Positions 5,312-21,552 of a stretch of 21,875 bases of DNA are shown here, piece after piece. The notes under the pieces were generated by a model, which did not search any database, had not been told where the DNA came from, and was given only the letters and a program-made list of their open reading frames with translations. The position numbers were made by a program, and so were the translations under genes. Each line of letters opens with the position of its first letter. The stretch's first letter is position 1. Source of the stretch: Candidatus Electronema aureum (GTDB taxonomy: Bacteria > Desulfobacterota > Desulfobulbia > Desulfobulbales > Desulfobulbaceae). The DNA lies in assembly GCA_004284765.1 (NCBI GenBank), contig NQJD01000040.1, positions 1 through 21,875 on the forward strand, written 5' to 3'.

Positions 5312-5710
5312 TTAACGAACAAGCTCAAACAGCGCAAAGCGAGCTGCTTTCCTGTCAAAGGTCATGACGACTTCACAGCCCTGCGCTTTGGCAGCATGAG
5401 CAATTAACAGATCAGAAAGATCGTATTTGCTCTCCTGCGCGGCTTGGATGAAATGATGCAGAACTGGACGATGCTCAAAGTTCAGCACCGGCATCAGGAG
5501 CAACTCCCGCAGCGCATCTAATATCTCATGCCTCGGTATTGCATAGACTGATTCCAGCACCCAGATCAATTCCAAGATGACCAGCAAAGGAACAAAGAGT
5601 TCGCTCCGGGCTGCTTCCGCCTTCTTGAACAGGTCGTACACCTTCCTTGCCTGTGTCTCGTCATCACCAACAAGAAAACGGACAAGGATGTTTGTGTCAA
5701 TGCCTTTCAC
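5312..5710 (-). CDS. vapC: PIN-domain toxin, VapC family
   Basis: 132-aa ORF starting 'MKGIDTNILVR' (PIN Asp in DTN). Later acidic positions occur in 'LSDLLIA' and 'TFD'. It overlaps the upstream antitoxin gene by 4 nt. Confidence 0.85.
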   Translation of the reverse strand: MKGIDTNILVRFLVGDDETQARKVYDLFKKAEAARSELFVPLLVILELIWVLESVYAIPRHEILDALRELLLMPVLNFEHRPVLHHFIQAAQESKYDLSDLLIAHAAKAQGCEVVMTFDRKAARFALFELVR

Positions 5711-6361: not shown

Positions 6362-7405
6362 TCACCCCTTCTTGCTGTGCAGGTCAAACGCCACCTCGTA
6401 GGACTTACCTTTCGCCAGCGCGGTCGCGGGCGGAACATACTTGAACAGCAACGCCGAGAACTCATACTCAAAATCCCCGACAAACTGCGGATCGTCATTG
6501 TTGACCGTAACTGTCCTGCCATTGACGCTGTGACTCGGCTGCGCGGCCTCGTGCCAATACTTGCTGATCACTCTGTCTGGGTAAAACGTCAACTGCCCTG
6601 TTTTCTGTCCATTCTGAAACTTCAGCGTGTCCGTCCGCGTTCGCTTAACCGTGCCGACCAGCCGGTACTCGCCGACCTTATATTCAATCTTGTCAAACAC
6701 CTCTCCGTCCGGGGGCTGGGCGAGGAAGTAGAACGGCTTGTTTTCCGTTTGCGTCCAGCCGCTGGTTCCATTTGTTTCCTCGTCCGGCTCCTGCACCCAG
6801 CCGGATGAGGAAGCTGCACCCGCTGCACTCTGCGGGTCGTTCTCAGGCTGCTTGCCCGCTGACTGCGCAGCAGCGGCGCGGGCAGCGTCAGCCTCGCTTC
6901 GCTCCAACGCCGCCACAATCTGCTCCGCTATCTTTGTAATAGCCTTGCGAAGCTGTGGCGAGGTAAATGGCTCATGGCGCAACTCCCTCCAGTCCGCATA
7001 CTGCCGGGCGGCGATAATCTGCGCCAGCGGGTCATGTTTCAGCTTCTCTTTGTCCTTCAGCACAGGACAGGTGGCATAATAGACCGGCAGAATCAAATCG
7101 CCTCGGCCCAGCTCCTCTTCCCGCTTGAGAAAACGCTCAAGCTCCGCACGGCAGGCGGTGCTTTTGAAGAATGCAGGCGTGATGATTGGTAGCAGAAAGG
7201 TGACGGCAGCAAGCGAGGTGTCCAGCCGCTCCTGCCACTGCTGGCCCCAGGCAATGTCCTTGCGGTCTTGAAAGATGTCGAACGCCTCGCCAGTCAGGAA
7301 ACGTACCTCGCCGCTCAAGCGTTCGCGGAACTGCGTCAAGTCCCCATAGTCATGCTGGTCGTTTAAATTCACATAGCTCAGAAAAGCAAGTGGTGTCCGG
7401 CTCAT
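6362..7405 (-). CDS. TIR-domain protein with low-complexity linker and unassigned beta-rich C-terminal domain
   Basis: 347-aa ORF with GGAGGA RBS 7 nt upstream. The N-terminal ~140 aa read as a TIR_2-type domain: 'LAFLSY....D', 'IFQDRKDIAWGQQW', 'LLPIITPAFFKSTACRAELERF'. An Ala/Ser/Gln-rich linker follows, then ~150 aa with no motif I recognise. Confidence 0.8.
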   Translation of the reverse strand: MSRTPLAFLSYVNLNDQHDYGDLTQFRERLSGEVRFLTGEAFDIFQDRKDIAWGQQWQERLDTSLAAVTFLLPIITPAFFKSTACRAELERFLKREEELGRGDLILPVYYATCPVLKDKEKLKHDPLAQIIAARQYADWRELRHEPFTSPQLRKAITKIAEQIVAALERSEADAARAAAAQSAGKQPENDPQSAAGAASSSGWVQEPDEETNGTSGWTQTENKPFYFLAQPPDGEVFDKIEYKVGEYRLVGTVKRTRTDTLKFQNGQKTGQLTFYPDRVISKYWHEAAQPSHSVNGRTVTVNNDDPQFVGDFEYEFSALLFKYVPPATALAKGKSYEVAFDLHSKKG

Positions 7406-7767: not shown

Positions 7768-8841
7768 ATGAGCATACAATATCGGATTGAACCGAATCCA
7801 CTCACCACGCCCCCATCCTACCGCATTCAAGCCGTGCCGCGCAACACCGCAGGCTATGCGGAGATGGCCGCTGACATCTCGTCGGCGCAGCCCATCTACA
7901 GTCCTGAGACCATCAGCAGCCTTGCCCCGCTGATCATGAAATGGATTCAGCAGCGGCTCATCAGCGGCGACAAAGTGACCTTGGAGGAGGCGTTCAGCTA
8001 CTATATCTCCTTCACCGGCAAGTTGGACAGCCCGGACGAGCCACTGCCAGAAGATGACGATATACTTCAGGTTAATGTGCGCGTGTCCCAGCCTTTTGTG
8101 AAAGAGATACGGCATCAGGCCAAACTTGAGCGGCTGCCCATGACCGAGAAGCTGCCCGTGATCACATCGACCGAGGACACCAAGCTCAAGCTGGCTGACG
8201 TGCTGTTCGCAGGTGGCGTGCTCAAGTTGACTGGCAGCAATCTCCTCTTTGATGAGAGCAGCCCGGACTGCGGTTGCGTGCTGGAAGGGACACGGAGCGG
8301 GCGGCAGAAGCAGAGCACCTACGCCTCGGTCGCCAACAGCGGCATACTGCTGGTGCCAGACATTCCTGTGCAGGATAATCCCTGGAATAACGAATACACG
8401 GTCACGCTCACCACCCAGTACAGCGAACACGGCACTCTGCGTAGCGGCACCAGCCGCCGGAAGCTGCGCTCGCCCCTGACCGTGCCGCTCTTCGGCCACC
8501 CGCATCCGCCAGAGACAGGGATACTGACCGGCAATGCCACTGCCCCGTATGTGAAGATCACTGGCGGCACGGTCTCAGCAGACGAAATGCTGCGCATTCA
8601 GGCGGTGATTGATTCCCGCAGCGGCCTGCTGCTGCTCAATTTGCTCGACATGGAAGAGGGCGGCAAGACAGGCGCGACTGTGACAGTCACCGCCAATGGG
8701 ACATACACCTTGGGCGGATTTGCAGGCTCGGCAGTGACCAGCTTAGAGCTGAAGGTGGAGAATCTTGCGGCGTTAGTCAGCCTGATCAGGAATAGCTATG
8801 CAGGCAGGATGGTGGATATTCTGGATATAAGTATGGCGTAA
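7768..8841 (+). CDS. HU-like (HU-HIG type) DNA-binding domain + DUF4469-like Ig-fold domain protein with ~110-aa unassigned C-terminal extension
   Basis: 357-aa ORF with GGAGA RBS. The N-terminus 'YRIEPNPLTTPPSYRIQAVPRNTAGYAEMAADIS....ETISSLAPLIMKWIQQRLISGDKVTLEEAFSYYISFTGKL' is followed by 'LPVITSTEDT...GGVLKLTGSNLLFDESSPDCGCVLE....ILLVPDIP....YTVTLTTQYS'. This matches my recollection of the Bacteroidota HU + DUF4469 architecture. I have not verified it by search. Confidence 0.6.
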   Translation: MSIQYRIEPNPLTTPPSYRIQAVPRNTAGYAEMAADISSAQPIYSPETISSLAPLIMKWIQQRLISGDKVTLEEAFSYYISFTGKLDSPDEPLPEDDDILQVNVRVSQPFVKEIRHQAKLERLPMTEKLPVITSTEDTKLKLADVLFAGGVLKLTGSNLLFDESSPDCGCVLEGTRSGRQKQSTYASVANSGILLVPDIPVQDNPWNNEYTVTLTTQYSEHGTLRSGTSRRKLRSPLTVPLFGHPHPPETGILTGNATAPYVKITGGTVSADEMLRIQAVIDSRSGLLLLNLLDMEEGGKTGATVTVTANGTYTLGGFAGSAVTSLELKVENLAALVSLIRNSYAGRMVDILDISMA

Positions 8842-8889: not shown

Positions 8890-9546
8890 TCAGGCTGCAT
8901 GGGCATGTTGCCAACGCGAGGCTTTCTCTTTCTTGATCTTGATGATTCTGGACCAGCCATAGTTGACTGATTTTACCTCAACGCTGGCATACCCCATTCT
9001 GTTGATGTATTGAATATACTTGTCGAGAGGGAAATAGACCCGGAAGCCGAGCTTTCTTTCCACTCGTTGCAGGAAGTCGTAATCAGCAAATTTTCGTAGT
9101 GTCTTCTTTTGACTGAAATGGTTAACGATGATCACCTCGCCACCTTCTTTGCAAACGCTAAAGGCTTTTTCCAGCAGGACTTCTGGGTTCGGCGTGACCG
9201 AAAGCACGTACATGATGATCACTTTGTCGAACTGATTCTGTTGGAATGCCATCTCCTCTGCATTTTCTATCTTGAGCTGCACGTTGGTCAAAGAGTATCT
9301 GTTGACCCGTTCCTTGGCCTTCTCCAGCATCTCTTTCGACAGATCAATACCGACGATATCCACTGTGCGTGGATATTTAATCAGACTGATTCCGGTTCCC
9401 ACTCCCACTTCCAGCACTTTCTCGTTACCATTGAGGGAAATCATTTTCAGTGCTTCGTTACGCCCATTCTCGAAAACAAGACCGAATATCTTGTCGTAAA
9501 CAGCAGAATACTGATTATAGACTTTCTCTACGCCATGTTTGTTCAT
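8890..9546 (-). CDS. Class I SAM-dependent methyltransferase (UbiE/PmtA-like)
   Basis: 218-aa ORF with SAM motif I 'VLEVGVGTGISL', then 'VGIDLSKEML' and 'FDKVIIMYVL'. The N-terminal 'YDKIFGLVFENGR' resembles phospholipid N-methyltransferase-type enzymes, which is a recollection only. The gene is visibly lower in GC than its neighbours. Confidence 0.8.
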   Translation of the reverse strand: MNKHGVEKVYNQYSAVYDKIFGLVFENGRNEALKMISLNGNEKVLEVGVGTGISLIKYPRTVDIVGIDLSKEMLEKAKERVNRYSLTNVQLKIENAEEMAFQQNQFDKVIIMYVLSVTPNPEVLLEKAFSVCKEGGEVIIVNHFSQKKTLRKFADYDFLQRVERKLGFRVYFPLDKYIQYINRMGYASVEVKSVNYGWSRIIKIKKEKASRWQHAHAA

Positions 9547-9651
9547 AATAGATTATTGCGTTGGACGGGTATCTTGTGCCGCCCTTCTGATGTGTTGACG
9601 GTATATAGGTCTATTCTGTTGCGTGCCGCAGAAAACAAACCATGCCTTCCT

Positions 9652-10551
9652 TCAATTTGAACATACTGTGCGCTGCCGCAACAGCACCATCTCACCTTCG
9701 CCTTTGAGTATTCCCGGAGCTAACTGCTGCCGCTCGGTGACGTGCTTGGCCACTTCAGCGCACTTGACCGTGAAGAGAAAAAAGATCGGGGCAGATACCT
9801 CAGACAGGGTTTCAAAATTACCCATGCCCTTGCTGATGATGATGTCTGCCGCCTGGAAATGCGCCTGAAACTCTTCGCTGCACTGTGCCAACGGTGTGCC
9901 AGGGCAGGCGGTGCCGTTACTGATCACCAGACAAAGCCTGTCCAACCCACAGAGGCGGGCATCCTCTAACGTGGCATCGTTGATGATGGGAAAGCCGCGC
10001 ACCGCTGCTGTGACCTGGCAGCCAAGCCGCTGAAGTTGCTCAATCAGCAGGGCATCAAAGACGATCTCGCCGCAGTTATCGCAGAGATAGAGAATCTTGC
10101 GCCCGGCCTTGCTGATTGCCTCCTGCAAGGCCGGATAATCGTCGATTGCAAATTCCCGCTGAAAGCAGTCCTGCATGGTCTGGGCCGCATCAAACGTATG
10201 CTGGGCAGCGTAATCAATAATATTGCCGCCAATTGCTGCTTGTACTGCCGCCCGCAGCGGATCGTCCGCCGCCGCAATCTGTGCTCTGATTGCATCGCGC
10301 AAGGACAAGGCCAGCTCGTTGCTTTCCCGCTTGACGCGAGCAAAGGGATCGCGGCTACCCAACACACGAGCAAACGTCTCGTAAAGCGCAATGGCGTTTT
10401 CCGGCGGGGAAAGATTGGTATCTGCCGCTGCGATGAACCGGCCAGCCTCGTTGCAAAGACACCGCTGCGTGGCCACATCAGCCCCAGCCAGCAGTCCGGT
10501 TGAACGAGCCTGTTTCATGAAGCAAACTAAGCAGTCAAGGGTGGTCTGCAT
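9652..10551 (-). CDS. DUF89 family protein (damage-control phosphatase, ARMT1-like)
   Basis: 299-aa ORF with N-terminal 'LDCLVCFMKQA' (family CxxC start), 'ILYLCDNCGEIVFD' and 'IISKGMGNFE' motifs characteristic of DUF89. Confidence 0.8.
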   Translation of the reverse strand: MQTTLDCLVCFMKQARSTGLLAGADVATQRCLCNEAGRFIAAADTNLSPPENAIALYETFARVLGSRDPFARVKRESNELALSLRDAIRAQIAAADDPLRAAVQAAIGGNIIDYAAQHTFDAAQTMQDCFQREFAIDDYPALQEAISKAGRKILYLCDNCGEIVFDALLIEQLQRLGCQVTAAVRGFPIINDATLEDARLCGLDRLCLVISNGTACPGTPLAQCSEEFQAHFQAADIIISKGMGNFETLSEVSAPIFFLFTVKCAEVAKHVTERQQLAPGILKGEGEMVLLRQRTVCSN

Positions 10552-11306
10552 GATCTTTTCGTCTCTTGGAGGAGCAAATATTCAGCCCGAACATTGCCCA
10601 GCGCGGCAAATATCTGCTCACGGCTGCCGGGAAGCTGCGCGTAAATATGCTGCAACAAGTCTCTGATATCTTTCCGCCGGGTCTGCTCGGCTAACGGACA
10701 CGTTGCAGGCACCGGCTCCAATCCCAACCGTTTGCCGATGGCGCGGATTTCCTCTTTCTCTAAATACGCTAAAGGTCGGATCAGGGCGATTCTGCCGGAG
10801 AACAGCTCTTGCTTGGGCCGCATAGTGCTGATATTGCCGCCAGACGTGAGGTTGATGAAAAAGGTCTCAACGATGTCGTCGCGGTGATGGCCAAAAGCTA
10901 ACTTGCCGCAGTCGCTCTGCCGGGCCTGCTCAAAGAGCTGCCGTCGTCGGTTGCGGGCGCAACGATGGCACAATCCTGCTGGGTCTGCGCCTTCCTCCAG
11001 CACTACTGGCTGCTCCGCAGGCAGAATTTGACAGGCAATGCCAAGTGCTGCTAACTGCGCTGCTGTCTGCTCTGCCCTGTTGCTATGTCGTCCGTTGTCA
11101 TCAGGCTGCATGTCAATATGCACCACCTCTACTTCGTAAGCAATCGGAGCTTTTCTCTGCCAATAATGCAACAGCCACGCCAGCACCAGTGAATCAATCC
11201 CGCCGGAAACCGCTGCCAGCACTCGATCGCCGTCAGCCAGCATCCCGTAATCCAGCATCGCTTGGGCCACGCGCCGGTTCTCTCCGACAGAAAGAATGCG
11301 TTTCAC
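10527..11306 (-). CDS. ttcA: tRNA 2-thiocytidine biosynthesis protein TtcA family (PP-loop ATPase)
   Basis: PP-loop 'SGGIDS', 'CHRCARNRR' Cys pair, 'GHHRDDIVETFF' and 'IRPLAY' are present. The ORF track extends to 11486, but that extension overlaps the upstream lipoprotein gene. I place the start at GTG 11306 (VKRILSVGENRRVAQAMLDYGM, which aligns with the TtcA N-terminus). The start is uncertain; alternatives are GTG 11270 and ATG 11258. Confidence 0.8.
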   Translation of the reverse strand: MKRILSVGENRRVAQAMLDYGMLADGDRVLAAVSGGIDSLVLAWLLHYWQRKAPIAYEVEVVHIDMQPDDNGRHSNRAEQTAAQLAALGIACQILPAEQPVVLEEGADPAGLCHRCARNRRRQLFEQARQSDCGKLAFGHHRDDIVETFFINLTSGGNISTMRPKQELFSGRIALIRPLAYLEKEEIRAIGKRLGLEPVPATCPLAEQTRRKDIRDLLQHIYAQLPGSREQIFAALGNVRAEYLLLQETKRSCRPPLTA

Positions 11307-11320
11307 GTCATGCGCAAAGA

Positions 11321-11956
11321 TTATTGCTTCCCAACAAGAAAGGAACAGTCGTTTAACTGTTCGCGTAAATTCTGCGAGAGGAGCTGTTCCGCCTTTACCC
11401 AAGTAAAGGAGTTTTCCGCACTGAGGCGAAACTTGAGTAAGTTGCTCATGAGCGGCTCTTGCTCTTCGTCCACTCTGCCACGACACAAAACCGTGCCTTC
11501 TGGCAGAGCCAACAGTCGGTACGAGAACGACACGGATGAAGGCTCTTTGGCCGTATATTCGCCACCAATCCGCTCTTTGTAGCGGTGCAGCGTGGTTTCC
11601 AGAATCGCATTGCAGCCTGCTTTTTCCGCTGCTGCCTTGGCTCCGGCCAACGATGTCCTTGGTTTGCCCGCTTCCTCAGCTTGTTCATCGCTGATCATGC
11701 GAATGTCTGTCCTGCTGCCAAAATAATCCCGCAGAGCTTGGTTCAGAGCTGTTGTGCCCTCATGCAGCGTTTTTTCTTCTCCCTCTGTCGACTTCCGGTC
11801 CAGATCAGTACCTTGGACTGCGGGCAGCACTGCCGCACAGCTCAGAGTAAAATCAGGCAACTGTGGTTCAGGCTGGGCTGTTGTTCCACCGCAGCCGCCG
11901 GACATTGCCGTCAGCCCCAGCAGTCCTGCCGTGATGATACGTCTCGTTGCGTTCAC
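11321..11956 (-). CDS. Probable lipoprotein of unknown function
   Basis: AGGAGGAG RBS, then GTG at 11956. The signal peptide 'VNATRRIITAGLLGLTAMSGGC' has a lipobox-like Cys. The longer tracked ORF (to 12289) runs through tRNA-Gly and is rejected. Confidence 0.65.
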   Translation of the reverse strand: MNATRRIITAGLLGLTAMSGGCGGTTAQPEPQLPDFTLSCAAVLPAVQGTDLDRKSTEGEEKTLHEGTTALNQALRDYFGSRTDIRMISDEQAEEAGKPRTSLAGAKAAAEKAGCNAILETTLHRYKERIGGEYTAKEPSSVSFSYRLLALPEGTVLCRGRVDEEQEPLMSNLLKFRLSAENSFTWVKAEQLLSQNLREQLNDCSFLVGKQ

Positions 11957-16645: not shown

Positions 16646-16876
16646 ATGCAGACAGCCAAGCTATTTGTCAACGGACGCAGTCAAGCCGTCAGACTGCCCA
16701 GAGGATTCAAATTCAAAGGAACAGATGTCTTTATTCAGAAAGTGGGTGATTCTGTCATTCTATTTCCAAAGGACAAGGTTTGGGAAACGTTCCTCAGCGG
16801 TCTCAACAGGTTCACAGACGACTTCATGGAAAATGGACGCGAGCAGCCTGAGATGCAGGAACGGGATGAGCTGTAA
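16646..16876 (+). CDS. vapB: VapB antitoxin (AbrB/SpoVT fold)
   Basis: '[41 protein letters not shown]' is the canonical VapB N-terminus. The stop overlaps the vapC ATG as TAATG. Confidence 0.85.
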
Positions 16877-17271
16877 TGTACCTTCTTGACACGAACACGT
16901 GCATCTTCATCAAGAACCGGAAGCCTGTTCATGTCCTCGAACGGCTCCGAACTTCCCTCGACAAGGGTGTCTTTTTGTCAAGTGTTTCAGTTGCTGAGAT
17001 GCAGTATGGAGTTTACAACAGCAGCAACATCGAAAAGAACAGAATTGCCCTGACAGAGTTTCTTGCTCCCTTTGAGATTCTCAACTTCGATGATGCGGAT
17101 GCGGAATTATTTGGCAGGCTGCGTGCTGACCTTAAAAGCAAGGGGACGATCATTGGGGCGTATGACATGCTGATTGCAGCGCAGGCACTCGCCCGCAACC
17201 TCATCTTAGTCACCAACAATACAGGCGAGTTCAAAAGAATTGCTGGCCTCAAGCTGGAAGACTGGAAATAA
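16876..17271 (+). CDS. vapC: VapC PIN-domain toxin (enterobacterial VapC/MvpT-like type)
   Basis: '[11 protein letters not shown]', 'SVAEMQYG', 'GAYDMLIAAQA' and 'LVTNNTGEFKRIAGLKLEDW' place all four PIN acidic positions in the expected context. Confidence 0.9.
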   Translation: MYLLDTNTCIFIKNRKPVHVLERLRTSLDKGVFLSSVSVAEMQYGVYNSSNIEKNRIALTEFLAPFEILNFDDADAELFGRLRADLKSKGTIIGAYDMLIAAQALARNLILVTNNTGEFKRIAGLKLEDWK

Positions 17272-19024: not shown

Positions 19025-19063
19025 AAATAAAAAAGGGAATCAGCATAGAATACGCTGATTCCC
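19025..19063 (-). terminator. Rho-independent terminator after tRNA-Arg
   Basis: GGGAATCAGC (19035-19044) / GCTGATTCCC (19054-19063). On the minus strand the hairpin is followed by CTTTTTTATTTC. Confidence 0.7.
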
Positions 19064-19072
19064 TGAATTTCT

Positions 19073-19149
19073 TGGTGCGCCAAGCAGGATTCGAACCTGC
19101 GGCCTACGGCTTAGAAGGCCGTTGCTCTATCCAGCTGAGCTATTGGCGC
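19073..19149 (-). tRNA. tRNA-Arg (anticodon TCT), encoded CCA
   Basis: The reverse complement reads GCGCCAATAGCTCAGCTGGATAGAGCAACGGCCTTCTAAGCCGTAGGCCGCAGGTTCGAATCCTGCTTGGCGCACCA. The anticodon loop is CTTCTAA. Confidence 0.9.
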
Positions 19150-19200: not shown

Positions 19201-21552
19201 TCAACCCTGATTTCGAGCTGCCTTATCGCAGACCCGGCAGACTTCGTTCTGCTCCCAGACCGGGCCGCTGGCAGTGTCATGCACGGTCACGCCCCGGCGG
19301 AGCAGCTCAGAGCGGGCCTCATCAGCAGCGGCCCAGTCCTTGCGGCGGCGGGCTTCCTCACGCTGCTGAATCAGGCGGTTGATCTCTGGGGCTAAGGCGC
19401 ATTCGTCCAAGCGGAGGAAGCCCAGCACCAGATTCATCCGGCGCAGGCAGGCAAAAACTTCATTCTTCTGCGCCAAATCGAGCGAACCGGCAATCAGGGC
19501 CGGGTTGGCTTTCTTGATGAACTCGAACAGCGCGCCGATGGCCCCGGAAATATTGAGGTCATCATTCATTGCGGCGGTGAACTGCTCCTCCAGCTCGGCG
19601 GTGAGCTGGCTGATCAAGCGGTGCGGCAGGCCCGGCGGCAGGCAGAGCAGCTTGCGGGTGAATTCATCAATCCGTTTTAGGGCGTTGCGGAAGGCATCGA
19701 GCTTGCGGTAGCTGAACTCGATGGACTTGCGGTAATGCACGCCCACGAGCATGAAACGAATCTCGCGCCCGGTGTAGCCTTTGTCCAGCACCTCTTGCAG
19801 CGTGACCACGTTGCCGGATTCCTGCGCCATCTTCTTGCCGTTGTGCAGCAGCAGGCCGGAATGCAGCCAATACTGCGCCAGCGGCTTGCCGGTCAGCGAC
19901 TCGGCAATGGCGATCTCGTTCTCGTGATGCGGGAAAAGCAGCTCTTGGCCGCCGGTGTGAATGTCAATGGTCTCGCCGAGATGCCGGGTGGACATGGCCG
20001 TACATTCGATATGCCAGCCGGGCCGCACATTGCCCCAGTCGGTGGCGAAAAAGATGCCTTTCTTCAGCTCGCCAAGTGTGGAACGCTTGAGCAGGGTGAA
20101 ATCACGGGGATTGTCCTTGTCGTAGTTGTCGAGATCAACCGTGCAGCCGGTCTGTATCTTGCTCAGGTCAATCCCGGACAGCCGCCTATATCGCTTGAAC
20201 TTCGAGATGTCGAAATAGATCGAGCCGTGCTTCTCGTAGGCATAGCCCTTGTGAATCAGCTTGTGGGCGATGTCAATCATCTCGGCCACCTGCTCTGAGG
20301 CACGCGGATAGCCGGAGAAGTCGTTGATGCCGAGGATGCCCATGGCCTCGCGGAAAAGGGAAATATGGCGTTCGGTGAAGGCGGCCAGCGGCTGCCCGGC
20401 TTTCTCCGCGCCAGCAATGGTTTTGTCGTCCAGATCAGTGAAATTCATCAACGACTGCACCTCGAAGCCGCTGAAGCGGAGATGGCGGATCATCAAGTCC
20501 GCTGCTGCCATGCGGCGGCAGTGCGCCAAGTTCGGCGGCTCGCAGGCAGTGGGGCCGCAGGCGTAGAAGGTCACGCTCTTCGCATCCGCCGGTTTGAAGA
20601 TCTCCTTCTTGCGGCTCATTGAGTTGTGATAGCGGATTTTCCCCTCCAGGCTTTCCTCCTTCTCCTTGCGGACAAAGAGCGTCGTGCTCAGGTAGCGTTC
20701 GCCGCCGTCCGGGAATATCGCCACCACGTAACTGTCTTTCACCTTGGCCGCCTGCTCCATCGCTGCAAACATCGCCGCGCCAGAACTCATGCCGACCAGA
20801 AGACCTTCGCGCTGGGCCAGCAGCCGGGCGGTGCGGAAGGCATCCTCATCCGCCACGTTGACAATCTGATGCGGCAGCGTCTTGTCAAAGATCTCTGGGC
20901 GGTAGGACTCCTTCATGTTCTTGAGGCCCTGAATCTTGTGCCCGTAGTACGGCTCCACCGCGACCACCCGCACGTCCGGGTGATGCTCGCGGAACCAGCG
21001 CGACAGCCCCATCGCCGTGCCCGACGTGCCCAGCGTGGTGACGATGTGTGTCACCTTGCCCTCGCTCTGCCGCCAGATTTCCGGGGCCGTGCTCTTGCAG
21101 TGCGCCTGCCAGTTGGCCGGGTTGTTGAACTGGTCGGTGAGGAAGTACAGCTCCGGCTGCGCCAGGGCGAGGGAGTAGGCTTTCTCAATCGCGCCGTCGG
21201 TGCTGCGGCGGGCCGGAGTGAGGATAAGTTCCGCGCCGTAGGCCCGCATGATCTGCCGCCGCTCCATGCTCGCTGACTCCGGCATGACGAGGCAGCAGCG
21301 GTAGCCCTTGGCCGCGCAGACCATCGCCAAGCCGATGCCGGTGTTGCCGCTGGTGGCTTCGAGCACGATCTTGTCCGGGGTCAGCAGGCCGCTTTCCTCT
21401 CCGGTCTCGATCATGTTCAGCGCGGGCCGGTCTTTCACCGAGCCGCCGGGGTTCATGGCTTCGAGCTTGGCGAAGATCGCGCCGCCTTCAGGCGATGCCA
21501 GCCGCCGCAGCGGGACTATGGGCGTGTTGCCGATCAGGGAGAGGAGGTTCAT
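19201..21552 (-). CDS. Fusion protein: PLP-dependent cysteine synthase (CysK/CysM-like) + full-length cysteinyl-tRNA synthetase-like module with non-canonical HIGH/KMSKS motifs
   Basis: Continuous 783-aa ORF. The N-terminal ~300 aa carry 'IGNTPIVPL', 'NPGGSVKDR' (PLP Lys), 'TSGNTGIGLA' and 'GHKIQG'. The C-terminal ~470 aa align by eye to E. coli CysRS, with 'FYACGPT', 'RPGWHIECTAM', 'IHTGGQELLFPHHENEIA', 'DDLNISGA' and the C-terminal 'LIQQREEARRRKDWAAADEAR'. HIGH reads NLAH and KMSKS reads KMAQE. Confidence 0.85.
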   Translation of the reverse strand: MNLLSLIGNTPIVPLRRLASPEGGAIFAKLEAMNPGGSVKDRPALNMIETGEESGLLTPDKIVLEATSGNTGIGLAMVCAAKGYRCCLVMPESASMERRQIMRAYGAELILTPARRSTDGAIEKAYSLALAQPELYFLTDQFNNPANWQAHCKSTAPEIWRQSEGKVTHIVTTLGTSGTAMGLSRWFREHHPDVRVVAVEPYYGHKIQGLKNMKESYRPEIFDKTLPHQIVNVADEDAFRTARLLAQREGLLVGMSSGAAMFAAMEQAAKVKDSYVVAIFPDGGERYLSTTLFVRKEKEESLEGKIRYHNSMSRKKEIFKPADAKSVTFYACGPTACEPPNLAHCRRMAAADLMIRHLRFSGFEVQSLMNFTDLDDKTIAGAEKAGQPLAAFTERHISLFREAMGILGINDFSGYPRASEQVAEMIDIAHKLIHKGYAYEKHGSIYFDISKFKRYRRLSGIDLSKIQTGCTVDLDNYDKDNPRDFTLLKRSTLGELKKGIFFATDWGNVRPGWHIECTAMSTRHLGETIDIHTGGQELLFPHHENEIAIAESLTGKPLAQYWLHSGLLLHNGKKMAQESGNVVTLQEVLDKGYTGREIRFMLVGVHYRKSIEFSYRKLDAFRNALKRIDEFTRKLLCLPPGLPHRLISQLTAELEEQFTAAMNDDLNISGAIGALFEFIKKANPALIAGSLDLAQKNEVFACLRRMNLVLGFLRLDECALAPEINRLIQQREEARRRKDWAAADEARSELLRRGVTVHDTASGPVWEQNEVCRVCDKAARNQG

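Follow-up and report, generated by a model that had tools for sequence, protein, structure and literature searches.

A cysteine synthase fused to a cysteinyl-tRNA synthetase homolog with an altered nucleotide site in Candidatus Electronema aureum and other Desulfobacterota

The contig NQJD01000040.1 of Candidatus Electronema aureum (assembly GCA_004284765.1), of which positions 1 to 21,875 (hereafter, the window) were analyzed, contains a single 783-amino acid (aa) open reading frame (ORF) (19201..21552, minus strand; ATG start, stop codon at 19201-19203) that encodes a CysK/CysM-type, pyridoxal 5'-phosphate (PLP)-dependent domain joined to a full-length homolog of cysteinyl-tRNA synthetase (CysRS), complete with the anticodon-binding domain. 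Both halves of this protein are under strong purifying selection, and the fusion belongs to an ancient lineage that is widespread among Desulfobacterota, with representatives in Desulfobulbaceae, Desulfobacterales and Thermodesulfobacteria. The CysRS-like module is folded and evolutionarily constrained as a protein of the CysRS type, with a nucleotide site unlike that of every characterized CysRS. We favor, with a confidence just short of even, the possibility that the fusion is a bifunctional synthase-ligase that would still charge tRNACys by means of a remodeled ATP site.

Domain architecture

A Pfam search started with the 783-aa protein identifies the PALP domain (aa 5-282, E-value 1.8e-75), tRNA-synt_1e (PF01406; aa 319-619, E-value 3e-85), DALR_2 (aa 657-713) and CysS_C (aa 720-761). 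On the basis of these matches, NCBIfam models, phmmer alignments and fold matches, the protein can be divided into the CysK/CysM-type domain (aa 1-295, 20668..21552, minus strand, as for all features of this gene; PALP, TIGR01136 and fold match) and the CysRS-like module (aa 306-783, 19204..20637), which consists of the Rossmann fold, the CP domain, the helical bundle and the anticodon-binding domain; the alpha/beta portion of the latter, matched by CysS_C, occupies aa 716-768 (19249..19407). Between the Pfam domains lies a short linker, KEKEESLEGK (aa 296-305, 20638..20667), and the structural model has a pLDDT below 50 at aa 284-301. Both halves score above the respective family cut-offs, namely, 378.3 bits against 340 for TIGR00435 (cysS; aa 309-768) and 371 bits against 344 for TIGR01136 (cysKM; the N-terminal 295 aa). 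A fusion of a complete CysK/CysM enzyme to a full-length CysRS homolog that retains the anticodon-binding and C-terminal regions had been proposed in a first-pass annotation made from the sequence alone, and the Pfam and NCBIfam matches bear this out. An identical protein is encoded on the chromosome OW818638.1 (GCA_942492785.1, 2.94 Mb), and the N-terminus of the fusion agrees with the family consensus. All motif coordinates given below were re-translated from the window DNA.

The N-terminal domain appears to be an intact cysteine synthase. It is 46-48% identical to CysM of E. coli (2BHS) and CysK1 of M. tuberculosis (2Q3B), and the former is the best fold match for the N-terminal half of the AlphaFold model (2bhs, TM-score 0.91). 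In the family alignment, which includes the query and its 120 closest homologs (121 sequences; all family counts below refer to this set), the catalytic residues are invariant: K40, the Schiff-base lysine for PLP within the SVKDR motif (21427..21441); T67-G72, the TSGNTG substrate (Asn) loop (21337..21354; 121 of 121); Q141; the phosphate loop G175-T179; and S256. The fused domain differs from the known enzymes in that it falls under both equivalog cut-offs (348 bits against 394 for CysM and 337 against 351 for CysK) and is covalently attached to the CysRS-like module. A tRNA-bound substrate was considered for this domain and judged unlikely because the Asn loop, which binds the free carboxylate, is invariant.

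Signature motifs and conservation of the CysRS-like module

The module shares the full domain set of canonical CysRS (E. coli CysS; PDB 1LI5, 1LI7 and 1U0B), with 36% identity. Its motifs were placed through phmmer alignments to three solved CysRS (8qhp, 3tqo and 1li5 from E. coli), with the E. coli numbering taken from the aligned sequence (H37-I-G-H40, K73, K266-M-S-K269-S270, and the Zn ligands C28, C209, H234 and E238). In these alignments, HIGH is replaced by NLAH (aa 341-344), which together with the following cysteine and a clade-specific pair of arginines (aa 346-347) forms the NLAH-C-RR segment (20512..20532); KMSKS is replaced by KMAQE (19819..19833), with the second lysine lost and the fifth residue acidic; and KIIK is replaced by KTIA within DDKTIA (20413..20430), the counterpart of DDKIIK, with the loss of K76. 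The first-pass annotation had derived the same states of HIGH and KMSKS by hand, leaving room for the possibility that a proper alignment would recover the canonical motifs; the hidden Markov model (HMM)-based and structure-guided alignments show the same substitutions.

These replacements are features of the entire family. Among the close homologs, the HIGH counterpart follows the pattern N-[LMI]-[AGS]-H, with asparagine in the first position in 113 of the 121 sequences, alanine or serine in place of G39 in most of them, and an invariant equivalent of H40. The KMSKS counterpart follows the pattern K-M-[AST]-x-[ED], in which the K266 equivalent is invariant, the fourth position is hypervariable and the fifth is acidic (E or D) in 118 sequences; a K269 equivalent is found in only one. 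By comparison, H37, G39 and K269 are conserved in 99%, 100% and 100%, respectively, of 105 canonical CysRS. The KIIK motif is NTIA in the family, with asparagine in place of K73 in 119 sequences, K73 being retained in the Electronema aureum-type sequences. R347 is invariant, and residue 573, immediately upstream of K574, is always lysine or arginine. The Zn/cysteine pocket is fully preserved: C332 in YACGPT (20557..20559; C28 in E. coli), W513 and C517 in GWHIEC (20002..20019; W205 and C209), and H542 and E546 in FPHHENE (19915..19935; H234 and E238) are all invariant, in accord with the first-pass reading of these three motifs as intact.

Additionally, the motif HTGGQEL (aa 531-537, 19942-19962) is found in the cable bacteria fusions, and only in these; its counterpart is HTASQDL in the other Desulfobulbaceae and HGGGxDL in canonical CysRS. 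The nucleotide-binding glycine motif seems to have undergone two linked replacements, of AS by GG and of D by E. The interpretation of this GG as a return to the canonical ATP site was dropped because it is accompanied by D229E.

With the 72 positions that are at least 90% conserved in the 105 canonical CysRS taken as the baseline, the fusion family keeps 60. The 12 lost positions (Y33, H37, G39, K73, W184, W194, G201, G226, G227, Q241, K269 and S270) cluster at the ATP/adenylate site and in the CP domain, and of the 26 consensus positions in the C-terminal, tRNA-binding half, 25 are retained, as are all 10 in the anticodon domain. Comparison with two other Electronema species yields a ratio of nonsynonymous to synonymous substitution rates (dN/dS) of 0.05-0.10 in both halves, and the mean column identity across the family is 77%. 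For the AlphaFold model of the fusion (pLDDT 79, pTM 0.56), the best fold match of the CysRS-like module is 1u0b_B, the E. coli CysRS-tRNACys complex (TM-score 0.79 over 480 columns); no PDB chain among the fold matches covers both halves. Given the retention of the consensus, the low dN/dS and the fold match, the module has very probably retained the ability to bind both cysteine and tRNACys.

Phyletic distribution and phylogeny

All 120 best database matches are fusions (771-849 aa, mostly 772-785 aa; 67-98% identity) from Electronema, Electrothrix, Desulfobulbus and Desulfolithobacter, and most of these are named 'cysteine--tRNA ligase'. A species survey, in which one genome per species was scanned, detects the fusion in Desulfobulbaceae; in Desulfobacterales, namely, Desulfosarcina, Desulfosudis oleivorans, Desulfatibacillum and an Olavius symbiont (about 52% identity); and in Thermodesulfobacteria, namely, Caldimicrobium, Thermodesulfatator and Thermodesulfobacterium (44-53% identity). 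Altogether, the same frame and architecture recur in over 120 clusters of proteins and in the genomes of about 45 species, closed chromosomes included. All Desulfobacterota fusions in the survey have the arginine pair after HIGH together with W184L, G201V and Q241I, which also set them apart from canonical CysRS along with the motif changes described above and the N-terminal CysK domain of about 300 aa, and none has K269. The Desulfobacterales proteins carry H[LV]GE, SWHIQC and a shortened GKKVD-EQG loop, and those of Thermodesulfobacteria H[LI]G[LIF], TWHIHC, FPHHENT and GKKLS--SEN. In Desulfovibrio ferrophilus, detected in the search of cluster representatives described next, an intact CysK domain is attached to a fully dead module (WP_126381224, annotated as 'cysteine synthase'; SWFMQM and FPHMENL).

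A wider search among 50%-identity cluster representatives reveals KMSRS forms (P0121 and P0280). In a neighbor-joining (NJ) tree, which is a distance method in which long-branch effects are possible, neither the Desulfobacterota fusions nor the KMSRS forms group within the radiation of canonical CysRS. Two standalone CysRS-like proteins, P0136 (468 aa, 58 cluster members) and P0138 (484 aa), with HIGL or HIGT and KMSRS or KMARS, group with the fusion clade, away from canonical CysRS.

Fusions of CysRS to enzymes of cysteine biosynthesis are found elsewhere as well. A CysK-CysRS fusion from a metagenome-assembled genome (MAG) of Nanoarchaeota (P0123, MFW6014224.1, 768 aa) has the canonical HIGN and KMSKS, branches within the canonical CysRS of the NJ tree and apparently arose independently. 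In Nitrospirota/Thermodesulfovibrio, the ORF for CysRS is 706-735 aa long and carries at its N-terminus, in frame, a serine acetyltransferase (SATase_N and hexapeptide repeats); such CysE-CysRS genes are present at loci L051, L054, L055, L060, L062, L064 (e.g., 9362-11500, plus strand), L066, L071, L077 and L078, and keep the canonical H[IL]GH and K[ML]SK[SRK]. All these proteins resemble the Desulfobacterota fusions in combining a cysteine biosynthesis enzyme and CysRS in one polypeptide but, unlike these, have canonical motifs (HIGN or HIGH, and KMSKS or KLSKK) and nest among canonical CysRS.

Predicted function

The conservation pattern suggests how the fusion might work. The CysK/CysM domain, with its fully conserved catalytic residues, would make L-cysteine from activated serine and reduced sulfur, and the C-terminal module is predicted to bind cysteine at the Zn site and tRNACys via the anticodon domain. 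The ATP site appears to have been rebuilt, with the first histidine of HIGH and the second lysine of KMSKS gone, the new invariant R347 present, and a basic residue always preceding K574. In Electronema, Cys-tRNACys is most likely still produced by this module, perhaps at a low rate, and the cell may have no other CysRS; the fused synthase would then supply cysteine in cis, possibly by channeling, and so couple cysteine synthesis to tRNA charging. Such a ligase of reduced activity that receives its cysteine from the fused synthase was one of the three functional options raised in the first-pass annotation and, judging from the residues retained, appears to be the best supported of the three. 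The invariant equivalents of K266 and H40, R347 and the basic residue 573 all support the feasibility of charging. The K266A and K269A mutants of E. coli CysRS, as well as the double mutant, retained activity in cell-free protein synthesis (PMC5660078); since the K269A mutant stayed active, the loss of K269 alone need not abolish charging. The existence of CysK-CysRS and CysE-CysRS fusions with canonical motifs in other lineages indicates that such coupling recurs in working synthetases.

A stronger version of this proposal, which we hold somewhat more tentatively, is that cable bacteria lack a canonical CysRS altogether, so that the fusion alone would translate cysteine codons, with R347 and K/R573 replacing the lost charge and the fused synthase providing cysteine. 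The relevant evidence comes from the supplement of PMC13293266, a 1215-cluster core genome of seven closed cable bacteria genomes (Roary, 50% identity, paralog splitting). This list contains 20 'tRNA ligase' rows, none for cysteine, and no SepRS, with 15 of the 20 aminoacyl-tRNA synthetase (aaRS) rows covered individually; the 7 occurrences of 'cysteine' correspond to CoaBC, four YkgJ proteins, NifS and a PxxKW protein. A canonical cysS should form a core cluster of its own, as the other synthetases did, because it is only about 36% identical to the CysRS-like module, under the 50% threshold. The fusion is missing from the core list as well but occurs in these genomes, so its absence is technical; given that 'cysteine synthase' is also missing, the fusion probably was merged with the standalone CysK and then split. 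A tblastn search with canonical CysRS against the window and 81 loci (about 1.2 Mb in total, as opposed to whole genomes) did not identify a second cysS. A search with the closest canonical CysRS (P0144) detects relatives from Omnitrophota and Aminicenantes only. With a profile of three canonical CysRS from Desulfobacterota, the list of matches is filled by Desulfobacterales sequences, at least 66% identical, with none from Desulfobulbaceae, a result that is uninformative rather than negative. Neither the fusion nor a canonical CysRS is among the 18 aaRS rows in the list of expressed genes of E. aureum GS and E. communis.

Several observations weigh against a charging enzyme. The losses (H37, G39, K269 and S270, and G226/G227 in most relatives) hit the residues that stabilize the adenylate transition state in class I enzymes, and the hypervariable fourth position of KMSKS is followed by an acidic residue near the phosphate-binding place. 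The position of the fusions in the NJ tree is paralog-like, and the members from Desulfobacterales, Thermodesulfobacteria and D. ferrophilus have far more degraded loops or have lost Zn ligands. Canonical HIGH/KMSKS CysRS are common in Desulfobacterales, and Desulfolithobacter dissulfuricans GF1 expresses a 487-aa cysteine--tRNA ligase (GF1_07220 in the proteome table), with a 792-aa NLAH/KMSAE fusion present in other Desulfolithobacter genomes. The absence of the fusion from the list of expressed Electronema genes points in the same direction, and the argument from the core genome is indirect.

These facts would be accommodated by a pseudo-synthetase sensor, that is, a non-aminoacylating module that binds cysteine and/or tRNACys and regulates or localizes the fused synthase, with a separate canonical CysRS in charge of aminoacylation. 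There are precedents for such a role: HisZ is a paralog of HisRS that regulates HisG, and GCN2 contains a HisRS-like domain. The fusion resembles the HisZ-HisG pair in that a synthetase paralog with weakened motifs is coupled to a biosynthetic enzyme of the same amino acid; however, HisZ is a class II protein that forms a subunit of its own and has no anticodon domain, whereas here the module belongs to class I, is fused in cis and keeps this domain. The selective erosion of ATP-site residues next to a preserved cysteine pocket and anticodon domain, and the loss of K269 throughout the clade in three orders, with a graded series down to modules without Zn ligands that are still attached to intact CysK, would be best explained by a sensor. 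Further, E. aureum GS expresses a separate 'cysteine synthase A', which suggests that the fused CysK is specialized. Conversely, the equivalents of K266, H40, D229 (or E) and R346 would not have to be invariant in a pure sensor, the core list of the seven cable bacteria lacks a row for cysteine despite the presence of 20 rows for other aaRS, and the fusion and a canonical cysS were not directly seen together in one genome in this analysis. The sensor is the main rival of the charging enzyme, with a somewhat lower probability.

A new chemistry appears improbable, whether ligation of the Zn-bound cysteine to a non-tRNA acceptor, as in MshC, or the production or loading of persulfide or S-sulfocysteine made by the fused CysM-like domain; the first-pass annotation had suggested both an MshC-type ligase and a persulfide-forming activity. 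The CysK half is closest to CysM-type enzymes (2bhs, 2jc3 and 2v03), which accept thiosulfate or larger sulfur donors, and many of the hosts are sulfur oxidizers or disproportionators (cable bacteria, Caldimicrobium thiodismutans, Desulfolithobacter), but the fusion is also present in ordinary sulfate reducers (Desulfosarcina, Desulfosudis and Desulfatibacillum), and no conserved neighbor gene hints at a thiol-cofactor or sulfur-relay pathway. MshC (Cys:GlcN-Ins ligase, a CysRS paralog; PDB 3C8Z and 8HFM) shares with the module the CysRS-derived core that binds cysteine via Zn; however, the MshC chains, of about 413 aa, match only aa 18-323 of the module, with no match to the anticodon domain. 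The TIGR03447 score, 186 bits against the cut-off of 485, and this lack of coverage do not support membership in the MshC family, and the E-values also favor CysRS (1e-87 against 1.7e-40). As for persulfides, a PLP-dependent cysteine persulfide synthase (CPERS) activity has been reported for E. coli CysRS, in which PLP is held by K73, K76, K266 and K269 (PMC5660078). In the fusion family, these positions are, respectively, N (98%), A, K and variable, so that only K266 is kept throughout, and K73 and K266 in the query; K73, K76 and K269, reported to be needed for this activity, are lost family-wide, and the published form of this chemistry is accordingly not supported. An assembly artefact at the junction, or a pseudogenized cysS stuck to cysK, has nothing in its favor but the degenerate motifs; with the same frame and architecture recurring in all the clusters and species genomes counted above, along with the low dN/dS and the high column identity, this explanation is ruled out for all practical purposes.

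Genomic context

The fusion gene is followed, 51 bp downstream of the stop codon and on the same strand, by a tRNA-Arg(TCT) gene (19073..19149, minus strand), as the first-pass annotation had noted, and then by a terminator-like hairpin with a T-run (19034..19064, minus strand; consensus scan only); a promoter-like site lies between the two genes. The tRNA-Arg(TCT) gene is located about 45-100 bp after the fusion gene at loci L001, L002, L003, L005, L007, L011, L019, L034 and L047, and further away at L009; this adjacency, conserved in Desulfobulbaceae, is kept across Electronema, Electrothrix and Desulfobulbus MAGs and in a 59%-identical relative. The tRNA-Arg(TCT) is absent downstream of the fusion at the Desulfobacterales and Thermodesulfobacteria loci. 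An Rfam search detects no regulatory RNA near the fusion gene.

On OW818638.1, the gene order is NTP transferase, phosphogluconate dehydratase, the fusion, truA, argC, rpsI, rplM and an ARMT1-like gene, on to dnaA, in agreement with the published table for E. aureum GS. In the window, the neighborhood consists of housekeeping genes and PIN/TIR cassettes, with nothing related to cysteine or sulfur. Synteny is confined to individual orders: upstream of the fusion, Desulfobulbaceae have DciA or AbiTii/Tpt1, and the neighbors are thymidylate kinase, SurE and LptD in Desulfobacterales and LpxC, pyrC and pyrB in Thermodesulfobacteria. Across the orders compared, no partner from a cysteine or sulfur pathway was found in the fusion neighborhoods. 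In Electronema sp. PJ, the fusion is immediately preceded by genes for the Tpt1/KptA RNA 2'-phosphotransferase and the AbiTii abortive-infection protein (L001:8068-9884, plus strand); small ORFs occupy this place in E. aureum GS, so the upstream flank is variable.

Near dnaA, the window contains, among housekeeping genes, two PIN-domain genes and one TIR-domain gene (5312-5710 and 6362-7405, minus strand; 16876-17271, plus strand), which probably belong to toxin-antitoxin or defense cassettes; BrnT and ParD-like genes are also called in this stretch. A DUF4469 domain protein is encoded at 7768-8841 (plus strand), and several DUF4469 proteins are abundant in the proteome table of cable bacteria.

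Implications

Synthetase paralogs and synthetase fusions are known, and the combination of architecture and motif pattern described here is, as far as could be found, uncharacterized: no description of a CysK-CysRS or CysE-CysRS fusion was found in the full text of open-access papers. Of the first-pass caveat that this might be a widespread, already characterized housekeeping form of CysRS, only the first part holds. A functional parallel is the SepRS-SepCysS(-SepCysE) transsulfursome of methanogens, in which, as proposed here, cysteine formation is physically tied to the charging of tRNACys in sulfide-rich anaerobes (PMC8762117, PMC5688128). The proteins involved are, however, unrelated (class II SepRS and a fold-type I PLP enzyme), and in that system cysteine is synthesized on the tRNA, whereas the carboxylate-binding Asn loop of the fused CysK is intact.

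Annotation pipelines label the fusions 'cysteine--tRNA ligase', because the HMM score passes, and their more degraded relatives 'cysteine synthase'; neither name fits the sequence, and a non-charging paralog that passes as cysS would distort pathway reconstructions and marker-gene sets. The graded series from the fusions with canonical motifs in Nanoarchaeota and Nitrospirota through the KMSRS forms and the NLAH/KMxxE proteins to the dead modules amounts to a natural experiment in the loss or change of synthetase function. Should the module be incapable of tRNA charging, it would represent a counterpart of HisZ within class I, a sensor of cysteine or tRNACys that was derived from a synthetase and is installed on a biosynthetic enzyme. 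If it does charge tRNA, it would illustrate how the active site of a class I enzyme can be reconstructed in the absence of two catalytic residues known from textbooks and would provide, besides SepRS/SepCysS, a second natural solution for linking cysteine synthesis to tRNACys in sulfide-rich anaerobes; and if the fusion is the sole CysRS of its hosts, these would possess a bacterial counterpart of coupled cysteine synthesis and tRNA charging.

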